A DNA stretch of 44,934 bases from an uncultured Candidatus Saccharibacteria bacterium (GTDB lineage: Bacteria; Patescibacteriota; UBA1384; XYA2-FULL-43-10; 1-14-0-10-43-13). Where the stretch lies: the NCBI GenBank assembly GCA_964364265.1, contig CAYILA010000002.1, positions 7,573 to 52,506 on the forward strand, in the 5' to 3' direction. Positions 36,349 through 44,667 of this stretch are shown here, in pieces; positions within the stretch are counted from its first letter, which is position 1, and the number at the start of each line of letters is the position of its first letter. A model generated the notes under the pieces. The model ran no database searches. It saw nothing but the letters and a program-made list of their open reading frames with translations, and was not told where the DNA came from. A program made the position numbers and the translations under genes.

Positions 36349-36726
36349 ATGAGAGAATTAATCTATCCCGAATTGAGTTATAAGTTGGTCGGGATGGCCT
36401 ACAAGATTGACAATGAAATCGGGTTTGGTCAGAACGAGAAAATATATTCTGATGTTTTTGAATCTCTACTAAAGGATACAAAGTTGGAGTATAAACGCGA
36501 ATTATATTGTCCATTGAAGCTAGATGACAAAGTTATAGCGAAAAGATATTTTGATTTTCTGGTAGAGGAAAAAATAATTATAGAATTTAAATCCGGTACC
36601 CAAGGTTACAGAGATGCCTGCACCCAAATATTCCAATATCTAAAATCAAGCGGAATCAAATTGGGGTTGGTCTTCAGGTTCACAAAAAATGGCGTGAAAA
36701 TAAAAAGAATACCATGTTTTAATTAG
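36349..36726 (+). CDS. GxxExxY (PD-(D/E)XK-like) protein
   Basis: LSYKLVG...GFGQNEKIY; DFLVE.KIIIEFK; Q...YLK...LG. Confidence 0.9.
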   Translation: MRELIYPELSYKLVGMAYKIDNEIGFGQNEKIYSDVFESLLKDTKLEYKRELYCPLKLDDKVIAKRYFDFLVEEKIIIEFKSGTQGYRDACTQIFQYLKSSGIKLGLVFRFTKNGVKIKRIPCFN

Positions 36727-36765: not shown

Positions 36766-37725
36766 ATGCCGATAATAGAATCAAAAAATCTGACCAAATC
36801 ATTTGTAAAAAAACGGTTTAATCCATCCGATGTTTTTCATATGCAACGCGAGGAAAAAGTAGCGGTCAACAAATTATCAATCGAGATCGAAGAAGGGGAG
36901 TTTATCGGTTTTCTGGGCCCAAACGGAGCCGGCAAAACAACATATTTGAAAATGTTATCCGGTATCATTTATCCAACTTCCGGAGAGGCAAAAGTCCTCG
37001 GTTTCACTCCATGGGAAAAGGATTACCGATTCCTCGGCCAGATCGCCATCGTAATGGGTCAGAAAAATCAGCTCTGGTGGGATCTGCCGGCGATTGATTC
37101 ATTCCATTTATTGAAAGATATTTACTCGATTTCGGAAAATGATTTCAAGAAAAATCTTGATGATATGATCGAGATTCTCGGCATGAAAGAGGTCATTAAC
37201 AGAAGACTTCGCAATATGTCGCTAGGCGAGCGGATGAAATGCGAACTGGCGGCTTCGTTCCTGCATAACCCGAAAGTGATATTTTTAGATGAACCGACAA
37301 TCGGGCTCGATGTCGTCTCCTCACAGGCAATCAGGAAATTTTTGATCAATATCAACAGGGAGCGGAAATGCACGATGATCTTAACCAGCCACTATATGGG
37401 CGATATCGAGGAGATGTGCAAACGGGTGGTGATTATCAATAAAGGTGAGAAGATTTATGACGGGGAATTATCAAAATTAAAAGAAAAGTATGCGCCGGAG
37501 AAAAAAATCCAGATTTATCTCAAAGATGTGGCCGAAAAAGAGAAGTTCGCCAAAATGTCGGGCAAGAAAAATCTAGAGGACAATCTTGGCACCATCCGAG
37601 CGTCGAAAAGTGAACTGGGAAGCATTGTTAAAGATGTTTTTTCAACTTTTGATATTGAAAATATCACAATCTCCGATCCTGATACCGAAGAGGTAATTAC
37701 CAAAATATTCGGTGAGAACCGCTAA
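36766..37725 (+). CDS. ABC transporter ATP-binding subunit
   Basis: GPNGAGKTT, GQKNQLWWDLP, SLGERMK, LDEPTIGLD, TSH. Confidence 0.95.
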   Translation: MPIIESKNLTKSFVKKRFNPSDVFHMQREEKVAVNKLSIEIEEGEFIGFLGPNGAGKTTYLKMLSGIIYPTSGEAKVLGFTPWEKDYRFLGQIAIVMGQKNQLWWDLPAIDSFHLLKDIYSISENDFKKNLDDMIEILGMKEVINRRLRNMSLGERMKCELAASFLHNPKVIFLDEPTIGLDVVSSQAIRKFLININRERKCTMILTSHYMGDIEEMCKRVVIINKGEKIYDGELSKLKEKYAPEKKIQIYLKDVAEKEKFAKMSGKKNLEDNLGTIRASKSELGSIVKDVFSTFDIENITISDPDTEEVITKIFGENR

Positions 37726-37752
37726 TTATTCCAATAACTATCCCGATACGAC

Positions 37753-37920
37753 TTGACATGCTCCGACTGATTGTTTAGAATGGCATCACAATGAGACAAG
37801 CAACCTTACTCATTATTAAAGTCGCCAAGAATATCCACGGAACCGCGGACGCTTTTTGATAAGTTAAGGCAAGGATTGGAATAGAAGCAACCGCGGCAAG
37901 CCCGCGGATTTTTGTTTTTT
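37753..37920 (+). promoter_or_regulatory. Attenuator cassette A: promoter, 22-aa uORF (37791-37859), antiterminator/terminator
   Basis: TTGACA-17-TAGAAT; MRQATLLIIKVAKNIHGTADAF*; ccgcgg-caagc-ccgcgg then atttttg. Confidence 0.7.
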
Positions 37921-38109
37921 ACGGGAGTAAAAAACAACCCTCCGAAGCGAAGATTTGTTTGCGAACCCGTAGGATTCGAAACAAACCTGAGCCCCAAAGG
38001 GGACCCTTTGGGTTGGCGGAGGGGTATTCAATAACGCTGTCAAATAGGTAGTTTTTGGTTCCCGATTTGCCGACTGTGGCAGGTCGAGATGCCGGAAAGG
38101 AGGGGTAGG

Positions 38110-38307
38110 ATGGAAAGCGGATATGTTACGGTAATAAGGGAGGGAAACGATAATCATGTCGTTTTCTTTCCTTACGGCAAAGAAGGGGTCGGTAAAATTA
38201 TCGGTTCCTTTGACGAGTCGGGGGCGGCTTGGAAAGCCGTCTGCGACTATAGAAATAGAACCGGTTCGGTTATCAAACCTCCCGACGGACAAGCGGGGGA
38301 GGATTGA
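38110..38307 (+). CDS. Small hypothetical protein (65 aa)
   Basis: SD AAAGGAGG; terminator agcccagccc/gggctgggct downstream. Confidence 0.65.
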   Translation: MESGYVTVIREGNDNHVVFFPYGKEGVGKIIGSFDESGAAWKAVCDYRNRTGSVIKPPDGQAGED

Positions 38308-38476
38308 GGCGATGCCAATTCGCTCCGGCAAATTCGAGCCCAGCCCTTTTTAGGGCTGGGCTATTGCATAATTATTGAAAATATGTTTTAATTATAGAAG
38401 TTTTCGGGTTCGAATATTGCCCGCAATCGGGTGGACGATGTAACAGATTCGAACGAAAGAAAGGAGGGCACAGGAA

Positions 38477-38884
38477 ATGCCCCAAGGATTAAAAGTTTTG
38501 TTGTTGGATGACGGAGACCGTGAAACGATCTCGTTCCTAAAAGGTCTCCTTTCTTCCCGCTTCCAGGTTGAGCTTGTTCCGCTTGGCCTCGACGCGGAAG
38601 AGATCGCCGAGCGGGCAAGGCCGTGGGAGATCGGGCTGGTGGTACTGGGCCACCGCTGGCTGACCGATATCCAATACCACGGGCAGGGGACTAGAATCCT
38701 CCTTGCCTGTTCACGGGCGTATGCCCAGGTAGTTATCTATCTGGAAAACCCCCCGGCACGGTATGGGGAGCACCTCCTCGATTTGCTAAAGGAAAGCGGC
38801 GCCGAGGCCGTTTACGGCCCGGACATCCTCGAACAGGTCGAAAGTTGCGTCCCGGCCGGCTGCAAGGGCGGGACGATTTGGTAG
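38477..38884 (+). CDS. Atypical receiver-like domain protein
   Basis: SD AAGGAGG; KVLLLDD, LVVLG, VVIY, SGA pattern of a REC fold. Confidence 0.55.
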   Translation: MPQGLKVLLLDDGDRETISFLKGLLSSRFQVELVPLGLDAEEIAERARPWEIGLVVLGHRWLTDIQYHGQGTRILLACSRAYAQVVIYLENPPARYGEHLLDLLKESGAEAVYGPDILEQVESCVPAGCKGGTIW

Positions 38885-38947
38885 GACGGGAAGAACCGAT
38901 TTCTAATCTGCTCATTTGCAGGTTAGAGTTCGGCCTTTCCGCCCATA

Positions 38948-39128
38948 TTGACAAAAGTTATCCACAGGATTAGTATATTAAAGTATGAAAAATACAACTG
39001 CAAAAAACTGGTTTGGTCACAAGAAATGTCTCATTATGCCCCAGATAACGGGTGGTTTTTGCAGGTTGAATATGTAGATGTATCGGAAAGTTAATGTGCA
39101 AAATCACCCCGGTCAGCGGGGTTTTTTG
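38948..39128 (+). promoter_or_regulatory. Attenuator cassette B: promoter with DnaA box in the spacer, 30-aa uORF (38985-39077), 1:2/2:3/3:4 helices
   Basis: TTGACA-17-TAGTAT; MKNTTAKNWFGHKKCLIMPQITGGFCRLNM*; accccg-gtcag-cggggtttttt. Confidence 0.75.
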
Positions 39129-39255
39129 ATGGCCTTCGGCCATCAACCTCGCCGTAGCGAAGACAATGAGCGTAGGCGGGTATTTCCTTGAGTAGGCGGA
39201 TTGGATGTAAAAATTATATTCAGCCCGCCCATTCCGGGCCTGAAAGGGGCAAGGC

Positions 39256-39450
39256 ATGCCGATAGATATAGTGCCTCGAAAAAACGGTGGATTTGGAGTC
39301 TCGGATCCCGATAATCCGGGCTCAATCATCCTTTCTCTTGACGAAGAGTCAGAGAAAAAAACCATGGCTGAGGTTGAAGAGGAAGTGCGGCGCATCCTCG
39401 AGAATCGCCGCAAGAACCCGCCCCGCACATCCCGCAAGGGGGTGCGATAA
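39256..39450 (+). CDS. Small protein with a HicB-N-like pattern
   Basis: SD AAAGGGG; NGGFGVSDPDNPG...EEEVRRILE. Confidence 0.55.
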   Translation: MPIDIVPRKNGGFGVSDPDNPGSIILSLDEESEKKTMAEVEEEVRRILENRRKNPPRTSRKGVR

Positions 39451-39510
39451 GTGCGAAGTGTACCGAACCCCGTAAGCGTTTTATCCGCGTCGGGGCTCGA
39501 CCATTGCGCA

Positions 39511-39549
39511 TTTAACCAATGTACACTTCCAAGGTGTACATTGGTTAAA
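39511..39549. repeat. Perfect 16-bp inverted repeat
   Basis: tttaaccaatgtacac-ttccaag-gtgtacattggttaaa. Confidence 0.85.
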
Positions 39550-39552
39550 GTA

Positions 39553-39726
39553 TTGATATTAATGAAACTTTTCTATAGTATGAAAGCCAATGTTAGTAAA
39601 TCAATTAAAATCTAGCCGCAATATTTTCTACACCTGGCTCTTTTCACAAAGCATCGCGGTAGGTTTTATTGAGTGAAATTATATCAATTGCTCAACAAAA
39701 TCAAACCGCGGGAACGCGGTTTTTTG
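39553..39726 (+). promoter_or_regulatory. Attenuator cassette C: promoter, 28-aa uORF (39590-39676), 1:2/2:3/3:4 helices
   Basis: TTGATA-17-TAGTAT; MLVNQLKSSRNIFYTWLFSQSIAVGFIE*; aaaccgcg-ggaa-cgcggtttttt. Confidence 0.75.
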
Positions 39727-39816
39727 GTAAATATTTAGTTTCTCTCCGAGCTTTATGGCTCAAAGAGCCGGAGGCTAAATCGGGAAGCTAAATCGTTCAC
39801 CGAAAGGAGATAGGGG

Positions 39817-40065
39817 ATGTGGATTGAACTGTGGTCGAGGGACAATCGGATCTATTTTCAGATCTATAATCCAGATGGGGAGAAGAAGGCCGAGGTTGGC
39901 CTTTCGATCGACTATGAGCAGGCAGAACGGATCGCCAACGAGGCGGTCAGAAAACCGACTGCCGAGGAGGCAGCTGAGTATATCTTGCGGGCGTATATGG
40001 TTTTGCCCGGACCGAATGAAGTGGCGGCGGAATACCGGGCCGAAGCATTTTGGGCAGAAAGGTAG
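39817..40065 (+). CDS. Small hypothetical protein (82 aa)
   Basis: SD AAAGGAG. Confidence 0.65.
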   Translation: MWIELWSRDNRIYFQIYNPDGEKKAEVGLSIDYEQAERIANEAVRKPTAEEAAEYILRAYMVLPGPNEVAAEYRAEAFWAER

Positions 40066-40072
40066 GAAATGA

Positions 40073-40423
40073 ATGGTGATGCTAGGTTCGCTAAGTCCCT
40101 CGGAATTGGCGACATTAAATCTTCTCGCGATGGAAGACGAGCGGTTCAAAGTCGTTGGAAGGATCAACCAGCAGATATTGGCTCGGGTATTAGGGTTTTC
40201 CAGCCTTGCCGTCATCGATCCGGACTCAATTCAGGATCACATTGTGGTTACCGGTATACCCGAGACCAGAAACGGAGTGCCGTACCTAACGAGGTTGATC
40301 CGATCTAAAGATCGGATGCCGCTTTACTCCCACAAGCACAACACGCTTGAGGAGGGTGAGCGGATACGAAAGGACATTATCGAATGTGTTCAAAACGGGA
40401 AGCCCCTTGCCGGGATTCCCTAA
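40073..40423 (+). CDS. Hypothetical protein (116 aa)
   Basis: Tightly follows the previous ORF; hairpin terminator 40428-40462 downstream. Confidence 0.6.
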   Translation: MVMLGSLSPSELATLNLLAMEDERFKVVGRINQQILARVLGFSSLAVIDPDSIQDHIVVTGIPETRNGVPYLTRLIRSKDRMPLYSHKHNTLEEGERIRKDIIECVQNGKPLAGIP

Positions 40424-40514
40424 ATCAGGCCCCTTGCCCTCTCCTAGGGTGAGGGGCTTTCTCGTTCAAACAAAAAAGCCCCCTTAGGGGGCTAAATATT
40501 AGAAATATAAATTA

Positions 40515-41159
40515 CTAAAAAGTAAAGATTGTTCCCTTAACCAAGAACGAGAAAACCCGCAGGATCGGCTCCATTATAGTGGAGATAATCGAGGTGCCGG
40601 TCAGGGGCCCGATTACTAATAGGCCGATCAGGATGACCGGACCTACTGATTGGTAGGTCTCCTGCATGTCGGGGCTTAAGAAATATTCGACGATGTGAGA
40701 GCCGTCCAGGGGGTAAATTGGCAGCAGGTTAAAGGCGGCCAGCATCAGGTTCAACTCAACGATGAAATTCAAAAACGACAAAGCGGCCGAGGAATCAATC
40801 GTGTGTCCGGTCATCAGAGCGTATCTGATCGGTAAAGCGAGCGCGAAAGCAACTATTAAATTGGCAATGATTCCGGCCAAGGCGACTTTGATTTCATCCG
40901 ACCGTTTATGGAAATTGCGGGGGTCGATCGGAACCGGTTTGCCCCAGCCGAATCCGGCGATCAAAATAAAAATCGTGCCGATCGGGTCAAAGTGGGCGAA
41001 GGGATTTAGGGTCATCCGGCCGTTTAACTTGGCGGTGGCGTCGCCGGATTTGTAGGCGACAAAGGCGTGGGCGAATTCATGAATTGTCAGACCAATGCCA
41101 AAAGCGACGATAAAAGCGACAACATAGATTGGATTTTGCAGGATATTGGATAGGAACAT
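40515..41159 (-). CDS. Site-2 protease (M50 family)
   Basis: HEFAH, GDAT...GR.TLNP, GWGKPVP, FNLLPIYPLDG; start moved to MFLSN. Confidence 0.93.
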   Translation of the reverse strand: MFLSNILQNPIYVVAFIVAFGIGLTIHEFAHAFVAYKSGDATAKLNGRMTLNPFAHFDPIGTIFILIAGFGWGKPVPIDPRNFHKRSDEIKVALAGIIANLIVAFALALPIRYALMTGHTIDSSAALSFLNFIVELNLMLAAFNLLPIYPLDGSHIVEYFLSPDMQETYQSVGPVILIGLLVIGPLTGTSIISTIMEPILRVFSFLVKGTIFTF

Positions 41160-41200
41160 ATAAGTCTGTAAAGTCGAAAGTCTGTAAAGTGATACATCAG

Positions 41201-41294
41201 TGTCATCCCGACTGATCCGCCAGCTGGCGGAGAACGGAGGGATCCCTCGGTTCGCTATACTCGCTCGGGATAACATTCGTCACTTTTGACTGAT
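41201..41294. repeat. REP-like palindromic element, copy 1
   Basis: tgtcatcccgac...gatccctcg...tatactcgctcgggataacattcgtcacttttgactga. Confidence 0.8.
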
Positions 41295-44555: not shown

Positions 44556-44667
44556 TGACTGGTCCTTCGACTTCGCTCAGGATCATTCGACTTTGACCAT
44601 GAATACACTTATTTTTCTAACATGGCTTGCCATGAGCGAGGAGTTAACTTGTTAACGACGAGTCGAA

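Follow-up and report, generated by a model that had tools for sequence, protein, structure and literature searches.

Three tandem leaders with leaderless short reading frames and alternative terminator folds in a Candidatus Saccharibacteria genome: candidate attenuators of small accessory genes

The classical leader-peptide attenuators are those of amino-acid operons, of the trp, his, leu, ilv and pheA type. Two further groups of systems stand close to them. Leaderless short open reading frames (ORFs) are reported to act in attenuators of Actinobacteria, i.e., the polycysteine short ORFs of mycobacteria (bioRxiv 10.1101/834739) and the attenuators of Corynebacterium (PMC3890552; PMC11857589), and antibiotic-sensing attenuators or regulatory upstream ORFs (uORFs) were reported for vmlR (PMC9226507), msrD (10.1101/2021.11.29.470318) and toiL, located upstream of topAI-yjhQ (PMC12121999). 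In this work we describe three tandem cassettes, each composed of a promoter-like site, a short uORF that would be translated without any leader, an intrinsic terminator and a small gene, which lie within a 44,934-nt stretch (the window) of contig 2 in the assembly of an uncultured Candidatus Saccharibacteria bacterium. As judged from their sequence, the cassettes probably attenuate transcription by means of ribosomes that read leaderless leader-peptide ORFs; that they act in cis as terminator/antiterminator leaders, of one kind or another, is very probable.

Layout and alternative folds of the three leaders

The first-pass annotation of the window described three cassettes that differ in sequence and share one layout, and all elements that it named were found where it had placed them (Table 1). 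Promoter-like sites with 17-bp spacers begin at positions 37753, 38948 and 39553 and match the consensus at 11, 10 and 9 of 12 positions, respectively. An ATG follows the −10 hexamer after 8–9 nt and opens a uORF of 22, 30 or 28 codons; since the −10 is so close, there is no room for a Shine-Dalgarno sequence in front of these start codons. In all three cassettes the 3′ part of the uORF pairs with an A-tract and the 5′ arm of a GC-rich terminator, and further downstream a small gene (P1, P3 and P4, respectively) is preceded by a strong Shine-Dalgarno sequence, GGAGG-like or AAGGAG-like. For the third terminator the program listed the − strand only, and the letters of the + strand show a stem followed by six T. 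The promoter scan revealed no promoter-like site between any of the terminators and its gene, so that P1, P3 and P4 would rely on read-through. The untranslated regions (UTRs) behind the terminators are strongly structured (z = −3.67, −3.47 and −3.09). The further hairpins noted there by the first-pass annotation are present, but those of cassettes 1 and 2 belong partly to a dispersed conserved element, termed R1, which is not specific to the cassettes.

Terminator hairpins of −9.8, −10.5 and −11.9 kcal/mol are predicted for cassettes 1, 2 and 3, respectively, and in 3/3 cassettes the transcript prefix that ends in the terminator loop folds an antiterminator. When the leaders were folded with the ribosome-covered bases constrained, as had been proposed along with the initial description, the footprint of a ribosome at the stop codon caused the terminator to form in cassettes 1 and 3, and occlusion was partial in cassette 2. 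Region 2, the 5′ arm of the antiterminator, reads by eye in every cassette as an imperfect copy of the terminator 3′ arm together with the U tract. Cassette 3 contains the full set of four segments, region 1 being located at codons 6–10 and pairing with region 2; folded at minimum energy, its whole leader adopts the form combining 1:2 and 3:4 pairing. The folds of cassettes 1 and 2 gave no clear region 1. In a related strain, represented by one low-depth contig (a weak observation), changes are confined to the loop and the T run of terminator 1, and the stems and the covered part of the ORF in cassette 1 are unchanged. No conserved aptamer-like sequence is common to the three leaders, and Rfam gave no match within 37753–39830, either at gathering score or at E up to 10; matches to Trp, His and Phe leaders, below threshold, lie outside the cassettes on the other strand (40469–40588).

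The following mechanism is proposed. RNA polymerase would start at a strong sigma-70-type promoter and a ribosome would load on the 5′-terminal AUG, a leaderless or near-leaderless mRNA thus being the template for the leader peptide. The end of the leader ORF would constitute region 2, able to pair with region 3, i.e., the A-tract and the terminator 5′ arm. A ribosome at the stop codon would cover region 2, so that the 3:4 terminator forms and the transcript ends after about 130 nt, and with a lagging or early-stalled ribosome the 2:3 pairing would form and polymerase would continue into the small gene. In cassette 3, region 1 could hold region 2 when the leader is untranslated, which would give the full 1-2-3-4 scheme of trp type; cassettes 1 and 2, having no clear region 1, would read through if translation is absent. 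The output of such a switch would report slow translation, resulting from scarce charged tRNA or from inhibition of the ribosome. We infer the start sites, translation of the uORFs, termination and the sensed signal from the sequence.

A promoter, about 130 nt and a strong terminator are also the anatomy of a small RNA gene, and the units might be regarded as stand-alone genes of this kind, with the downstream genes being expressed independently. Elsewhere in the order, a conserved non-coding RNA of about 100 nt, equipped with a promoter and a terminator of its own, lies directly before an R1 copy, and RNAs derived from attenuators can reportedly also act in trans (PMC6614838). Under this explanation, however, P1, P3 and P4 would be left promoterless, as no promoter-like site follows the terminators, and neither the mimicry of region 4 by region 2 nor the frame-specific openness of the ORFs described below would be needed. 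We therefore consider independent small RNA genes quite improbable, although the two readings are not mutually exclusive.

Within the own genome the arrangement is confined to the three cassettes. The genome contains 1966 promoter-like sites at a threshold of 9 of 12 matches or better, which yield 52 entries with a terminator 60–200 nt downstream; among these 52, an ATG at 8–9 nt that opens an ORF of 22–30 codons occurs in the three units only, the remaining ATG-bearing entries opening 8, 6 and 683 codons. By the strength of the competing upstream pairing the cassettes rank 3rd, 7th and 28th of the 203 terminator-like sites of the genome. It may be objected that promoter-like, ATG and terminator-like strings simply co-occur by chance in AT-rich spacers, all the more that promoter-like sites are not significantly enriched in the 6-kb region (14 found vs. 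9.1, sd 3.4) and that the pattern was defined after being seen. Uniqueness in the own genome and the pairing ranks, together with the permutation and frame tests given in the next section, disfavour chance to such an extent that hardly any weight is left to it.

Related leaders in other genomes of the order

The comparison set comprised 44 genomes of the order (43 besides the own one). Cargo proteins, i.e., those encoded by the genes behind the leaders, gave no route to orthologous leaders, but the flanking gene of an ABC transporter ATPase did; its ortholog was found in 11 of the 22 other genomes of the family. The downstream sequence was read at eight ABC ATPase loci, and the neighbours vary between genomes. 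In a genome of another genus (G009), two cassettes of the same layout and with different cargo are located downstream of the orthologous ABC ATPase gene. The first is built of TTGACA-17-TAAATT, a GTG 7 nt further on, 23 Ile-rich codons, a terminator and an orphan gene of 140 aa. The second has a similar promoter, an ATG 7 nt on and 25 Leu-rich codons, followed by an orphan gene of 135 aa, and over 9 nt its region 2 is complementary to the terminator 5′ arm without any mismatch.

The order-wide search with the pattern TTGACA-N17-TARWWT-N6-9-RTG yielded 84 matches in 38 of the 44 genomes, compared to 6 for the reversed pattern used as a control, and leaderless starts, hence leaderless mRNAs, therefore seem common in this lineage; in the own genome about nine long ORFs start 6–10 nt after a −10. 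Of the 81 distinct matches examined, 62 open an ORF of at most 45 codons; in the other 19 the ORF exceeds 45 codons or continues past the end of the available sequence. The 5′ arm of a terminator-like hairpin is found 60–190 nt after the start codon in 17 of the 81. The first stop codon falls 15–50 nt before the terminator arm in the frame of the start codon in 14/17 cases, in the +1 frame in 1/17 and in the +2 frame in 4/17, the +1 frame being a biased control, since it begins with TG.

Pairing was tested on 14 leaders of 11 genomes and 3 families, which were hand-chosen by promoter, ORF length and distance to the terminator; they include 13 of the 17 units and cassette 3, the latter missed by the pattern because its −35 is TTGATA. 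Dropped from the set were L117 (10 codons), L123 (stop codon inside the terminator) and L146 and L172 (5 and 10 codons; 88 and 100 nt from the terminator), and L149, L162 and L107 were likewise outside it. In 14/14 leaders the start codon is located 6–9 nt from the −10. The 2:3 duplex with the own ORF tail has a mean of −13.7 kcal/mol, compared to −8.1 kcal/mol (sd 2.6) with the tails of other members; the own tail ranks 1st in 9 leaders, 2nd in 4 and 3rd in 1, and none of 20000 permutations reached the own-tail mean. The respective values for 1:2 pairing are −15.2 and −11.3 kcal/mol (0/20000 permutations). Because the stems differ between leaders, such member-specific pairing is covariation in a practical sense, and the trp/his-type attenuator geometry driven by a leaderless uORF, originally read from the window alone, has now gained comparative backing.

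The alternative pairings are real, and they would equally serve a terminator/antiterminator switch sensed by a protein, a small RNA or a metabolite (e.g., phage-like processive antitermination), with the uORFs being incidental. Such a switch would agree with the GC-richer orphan cargo, resembling mobile DNA, with a serine recombinase-like gene found about 1.6 kb past the G009 island, and with the lack of a clear region 1 in cassettes 1 and 2. Yet, it fails to explain why the start frame stays open in 14/17 units vs. 1/17 and 4/17 for the other frames, why the start codon keeps its distance of 6–9 nt to the −10 in all 14 leaders and why the peptides contain residue runs, and the three leaders neither share an aptamer-like sequence nor match Rfam. 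A sensor of this other kind is thus unlikely, and ribosome-mediated attenuation remains the reading that we prefer.

The leader peptides bear on the signal that such attenuators could sense. Among the relatives, runs of Ile (..TIIISAIII..), Leu (..NLLLVL.., ..LVLGLLLL..) and aromatic residues (..NWFYFF.., ..NFWFYFF.., ..NYWFF..) are present, as well as weaker His runs (..SHDTQHSH.., ..RHHR..). The run score, defined as the largest count of the same residue (or of F/W/Y) per 8-residue window and compared with nucleotide shuffles, amounts to 57 when summed over the 14 leaders vs. 39.3 (sd 2.5) for shuffled sequences, with 0/5000 shuffles reaching it; in 5/14 single leaders (one Ile, one Leu and three aromatic) p is ≤0.036. 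The first-pass annotation claimed that the uORFs have no tandem amino-acid codons. This holds statistically for the three peptides of the window, but not for the relatives' leaders, and the runs in these sister leaders make amino-acid sensing a live option, not general stalling alone. For the window cassettes there are weak hints of branched-chain (..TLLIIKV..) and aromatic (..NIFYTWLF..) stretches, so a branched-chain or an aromatic amino acid, or general slowing, may be the signal. One may also ask if the short ORFs encode functional leaderless micro-proteins, such as membrane peptides or toxins, each followed by a terminator of its own; the ORFs are indeed open, their beginning coincides with the predicted start site and several of the peptides are hydrophobic. 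Peptide sequence is, however, not conserved across the 14 leaders except for the region 1 and region 2 segments at the nucleotide level, and the 3′ ends of the ORFs are dictated by terminator mimicry, which makes functional micro-proteins very unlikely.

Several observations weigh against ribosome-mediated attenuation, in addition to the biased frame control and the choice of leaders by hand mentioned above. In cassette 2 a ribosome at the stop codon masks just the apical part of a long antiterminator, and in cassette 1 the AUG lies inside a predicted 6-bp 5′ hairpin, a possible hindrance to leaderless initiation. The distance from terminator to gene, 90–200 nt, is long by the standards of attenuators. 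Sequence homologues are lacking for cassettes 2 and 3, and the resemblance of cassette 1 to the first leader of G009 is weak. The runs in the window's peptides are not significant (p = 0.57, 0.70 and 0.21), and other frames also show runs that stem from repetitive nucleotides, though smaller ones. Genome-wide, ATG is not enriched 8–9 nt after promoter-like sites (5–8 cases per offset from 4 to 11 nt, among 373 sites), and the three units are therefore special cases, not a genomic habit. Finally, the listing of runs holding this DNA gave no RNA run.

Setting, cargo genes and repeated elements

The assembly totals 763,632 bases in 18 contigs (a host genome of 0.76 Mb), and the DNA runs that contain the window are labelled "groundwater metagenome." The cassettes form an island at 37726–40514, stretching from the ABC transporter ATPase gene to an M50 peptidase gene, with a G+C content of ~0.50 vs. 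~0.40 in the flanks. Among DNA contigs from four runs, the island is unchanged in two.

Table 1. Features of the cassette island, its neighbours and the R1 copies of the own genome (window positions unless a contig is given).
Feature	Position	Strand	Remark
ABC transporter ATPase gene	36766-37725	+	5′ neighbour of island
Cassette 1 promoter-like site, TTGACA-17-TAGAAT	37753-37781	+	11/12 consensus matches
Cassette 1 leaderless uORF, 22 codons (MRQATLLIIKVAKNIHGTADAF)	37791-37859	+	ATG 9 nt after −10
Cassette 1 region 2 (antiterminator 5′ arm)	37843-37857	+	last uORF codons
Cassette 1 region 3	37883-37896	+	competing duplex −18.5 kcal/mol, rank 3 of 203
Cassette 1 terminator stem-loop	37891-37907	+	T run 37909-37920
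Cassette 1 hairpin H0	37912-37937	+	terminator T run paired with downstream A run
R1, full copy	37938-38024	.	74.1 bits; extra inserted hairpin 37992-38012
Cassette 1 further hairpin ahead of P1 Shine-Dalgarno	38052-38097	+	whole UTR z = −3.67
P1, small orphan gene, 65 aa	38110-38307	+	alternative in-frame ATG 38089 gives 72 aa
P2, orphan gene, 135 aa	38477-38884	+	1 homologue, 73% identity
Cassette 2 promoter-like site, TTGACA-17-TAGTAT	38948-38976	+	10/12
Cassette 2 leaderless uORF, 30 codons	38985-39077	+	ATG 8 nt after −10
Cassette 2 region 2	39050-39069	+	uORF stop at 39075 lies in the antiterminator apical loop
Cassette 2 region 3	39090-39109	+	rank 7 of 203
Cassette 2 terminator stem-loop	39106-39122	+	T run to 39127
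Cassette 2 hairpin H0	39128-39144	+	
R1, minimal copy	39147-39180	.	closing helix and both purine-rich internal loops kept, distal helix absent; 21.3 bits, E 6e-4, weak
P3, small gene, 64 aa	39256-39450	+	no family
Palindrome, 16-bp stem, core CCAATGTACAC..GTGTACATTGG	39511-39549	.	between P3 and cassette 3
Cassette 3 promoter-like site, TTGATA-17-TAGTAT	39553-39581	+	9/12
Cassette 3 leaderless uORF, 28 codons	39590-39676	+	ATG 8 nt after −10
Cassette 3 regions 1 and 2	39605-39619 and 39655-39673	+	both within uORF
Cassette 3 region 3	39691-39710	+	rank 28 of 203
Cassette 3 terminator stem-loop	39703-39722	+	T run follows
Cassette 3 long hairpin	39723-39804	+	T run paired with stretch directly before P4 Shine-Dalgarno; z = −3.09
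P4, orphan gene, 82 aa	39817-40065	+	
P5, orphan gene, 116 aa	40073-40423	+	
M50 peptidase gene	40515-41276	−	3′ neighbour of island
R1, second own-genome copy	C8:24275-24354	−	between ribosomal protein S2 and L31 genes

None of the five window proteins P1–P5 had a credible match in Pfam, PHROGs or NCBIfam, and P1 and P4 have no relatives in the 43 other genomes of the order. Only one homologue of P2 was found among the proteins searched and none in metagenome contigs; its Atlas model seems to resemble a receiver (CheY-like) fold with a TM of about 0.7, which is a lead only. The protein atlas gave nothing for P5. The cargo of the relatives' leaders is GC-richer than its surroundings (e.g., 0.59 vs. 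0.42; 0.54–0.55 vs. 0.43; 0.58–0.59 vs. 0.43). Ten of these cargo proteins were scanned: three are above the Pfam cut-off (a nucleoside hydrolase, a GNAT acetyltransferase and an MFS transporter), one matches flavodoxin families just below it and six have no match. In G009 (L196; G009:C2:61500-66800) a 416-aa protein with Recombinase and zinc-ribbon recombinase domains, similar to large serine recombinases, is encoded about 1.6 kb past the gene of the second cassette, hinting at a variable locus shaped by a mobile element; no recombinase-like gene was seen among the scanned neighbours in the window.

The sequence just after terminator 1 (37938–38024) matches other genera at 74–93% identity and belongs to R1, a rod-like hairpin of about 80 nt with a CCCUCC/GGAGGG closing helix, GAA/GAA and GA/GA loops and a covarying distal helix. 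In the R1 model 9 of 23 pairs change on both sides and 90.7% of cells are paired (0/500 shuffles). The covariance model found 66 copies in 24 of the 44 genomes, 1–12 per genome; in a phylum-wide sample R1 occurs in 4/151 genomes, namely the own one, G004 of the same family and, weakly, two outside the order. At the R1 copies and the units upstream of them in relatives Rfam recognised nothing but rRNA and tRNA. R1 is an element in its own right whose presence in two of the three leaders is incidental, and its participation in the attenuator decision can be ruled out, as it is located downstream of the terminator.

Contexts were labelled for 65 R1 copies and occur in both orientations. In 37 cases R1 is placed just upstream of a gene start or 16S rRNA, opposite to the model orientation, with a small covarying hairpin between, often directly after the previous gene (e.g., tpiA-gap); highly expressed genes are among those that R1 precedes. 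Ten copies have the model orientation and come directly after an intrinsic terminator, the T run of which makes up this small hairpin; cassettes 1 and 2 belong to this class, and others precede rplJ or pcrA. Five copies follow a tRNA gene and are themselves followed by a repeat of the 3′ end of that tRNA (L021, L038, L048, L066 and L076; 12–13 nt duplicated), four are situated within the secA 3′ end, next to a duplicate of the segment that encodes the C-terminal zinc motif of SecA (L022, L050, L053 and L054), and nine have other contexts. The duplicates in the R1 flanks look like the footprint of an insertion that replaced the 3′ end of its target and was conserved across families. In L018 (G037:C25) the spacer between 16S and tRNA-Ile contains an R1 copy together with a short ORF that has a promoter-like site of its own, and the Rfam 16S match there is displaced by ~900 nt, suggesting an insertion near the 16S 3′ end. 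The counts of G-U and A-C pairs (type A 14:14, B 6:9, C 3:3, D 1:1, other 15:6) were judged equal and thus favour neither strand of R1 as the acting one, nor do they decide on a role at the DNA level.

Several further ideas were considered and rejected. As a mimic of an rRNA site R1 has no second match in the own genome beyond the C8 copy; for a K-turn there is no 3-nt bulge; for integron attC sites no R′/R″ boxes were seen by eye, no formal test being made; and for a retron, bridge RNA or omega RNA there is no reverse transcriptase or transposase gene nearby. ERIC, REP and Correia-type elements are dispersed intergenic imperfect palindromes. R1 resembles them in being an imperfect palindrome of ~80 nt, intergenic, present in 1–12 copies per genome in either orientation and highly conserved across genera, but differs in its conserved purine-rich mismatches, in the fixed partner hairpin H0, in its orthologous positions across families (before 16S, after the His tRNA gene and at the secA 3′ end) and in that neither terminal inverted repeats nor short duplications of the target were observed.

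Further elements were encountered in the course of the work. The conserved RNA of ~100 nt is encoded upstream of R1 in L017 and L062 and in the own genome at C13:3973-4076 (−); its closing helix is long and shows covariation, its C-rich loop (UUCCCCCUCCG) is complementary to Shine-Dalgarno sequences, and it has DNA matches in 22 of the 44 genomes and no Rfam match. The CCAATGTACAC..GTGTACATTGG palindrome has three copies in the own genome (also C1:17240-17274 and C10:26093-26128) and occurs in at least four relatives; its position is intergenic, and it might represent a terminator or a protein site. A dispersed repeat, GTCATCCCGA..GAGCG.AG..GGAGGGATC, was located by motif scans at C4:35753, C5:63420, C5:67207, C10:16128, C11:608 and C14:5504, with a window copy at about 44558–44641 (−). 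Repeats of this type often accompany the PD-(D/E)XK_3 gene family, and the window has a gene of this family at 36349–36726.

Significance and comparison with known systems

To our knowledge, gene regulation in bacteria of the candidate phyla radiation is almost unknown, and in the accessible parts of the literature on their leaderless translation or structured RNA motifs we found nothing on attenuation. If the proposed mechanism is true, transcription and translation would be tightly coupled in these cells and leaderless initiation would be routine, and the leaders would act as sensors from which translational or amino-acid status could be read in organisms relying on others for their building blocks. 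A broader idea, to which we give somewhat less than even credence, is that the order possesses a diversified family of leaderless attenuators serving as plug-in switches for horizontally acquired, GC-richer accessory genes. Their leaders would be tuned to Ile, Leu, aromatic residues or His, or to general slowing, would be stackable as arrays at a variable locus beside a conserved ABC transporter operon and, in organisms unable to make amino acids, would report how far these are supplied by the host or the environment. It would then become visible how newly acquired genes come under control. The leaders are short and self-contained, and can therefore be tested in cell-free systems without culturing the organism. 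R1 and the ~100-nt RNA with its anti-Shine-Dalgarno-like loop are new candidates for study.

How do the cassettes compare with the systems described so far? Antibiotic-sensing uORFs reportedly relieve termination or repression of accessory genes through stalling on the uORF, and in this the proposed mechanism is alike. In the cassettes, unlike there, no known arrest motif was recognised, and no resistance gene was identified in the window. MFS transporters and GNAT acetyltransferases, both found among the relatives' cargo, are of the kinds often regulated by antibiotic-sensing uORFs.

With the classical attenuators the cassettes share a promoter-proximal short ORF whose end overlaps region 2, mutually exclusive 2:3 and 3:4 pairings, joined by 1:2 pairing in cassette 3 and across the family of leaders, and an intrinsic terminator, and some of the relatives' peptides have Ile, Leu, aromatic or His runs. 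They differ from the classical type in that there is no Shine-Dalgarno sequence and the AUG is located at the predicted transcript start; that the targets are not biosynthetic but orphan or accessory genes (nucleoside hydrolase, GNAT, MFS, unknowns); and that the host genome is as small as 0.76 Mb, the window peptides lack significant runs and no Rfam leader family matches.

In the Actinobacteria systems, a leaderless short ORF is reportedly likewise the first cistron and controls downstream genes in response to an amino acid. The cassettes differ from them by belonging to another phylum, by the lack of Cys runs, by a clear intrinsic terminator with a U tract, by the tandem array and by orphan cargo. 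The first-pass annotation knew of no description of such a repeated system; as regards the mechanism this did not stand, since leaderless attenuators are known from Actinobacteria. New are the lineage, a cargo of accessory or orphan genes, leader peptides that have diversified and the arrangement of the cassettes in tandem at a variable locus.

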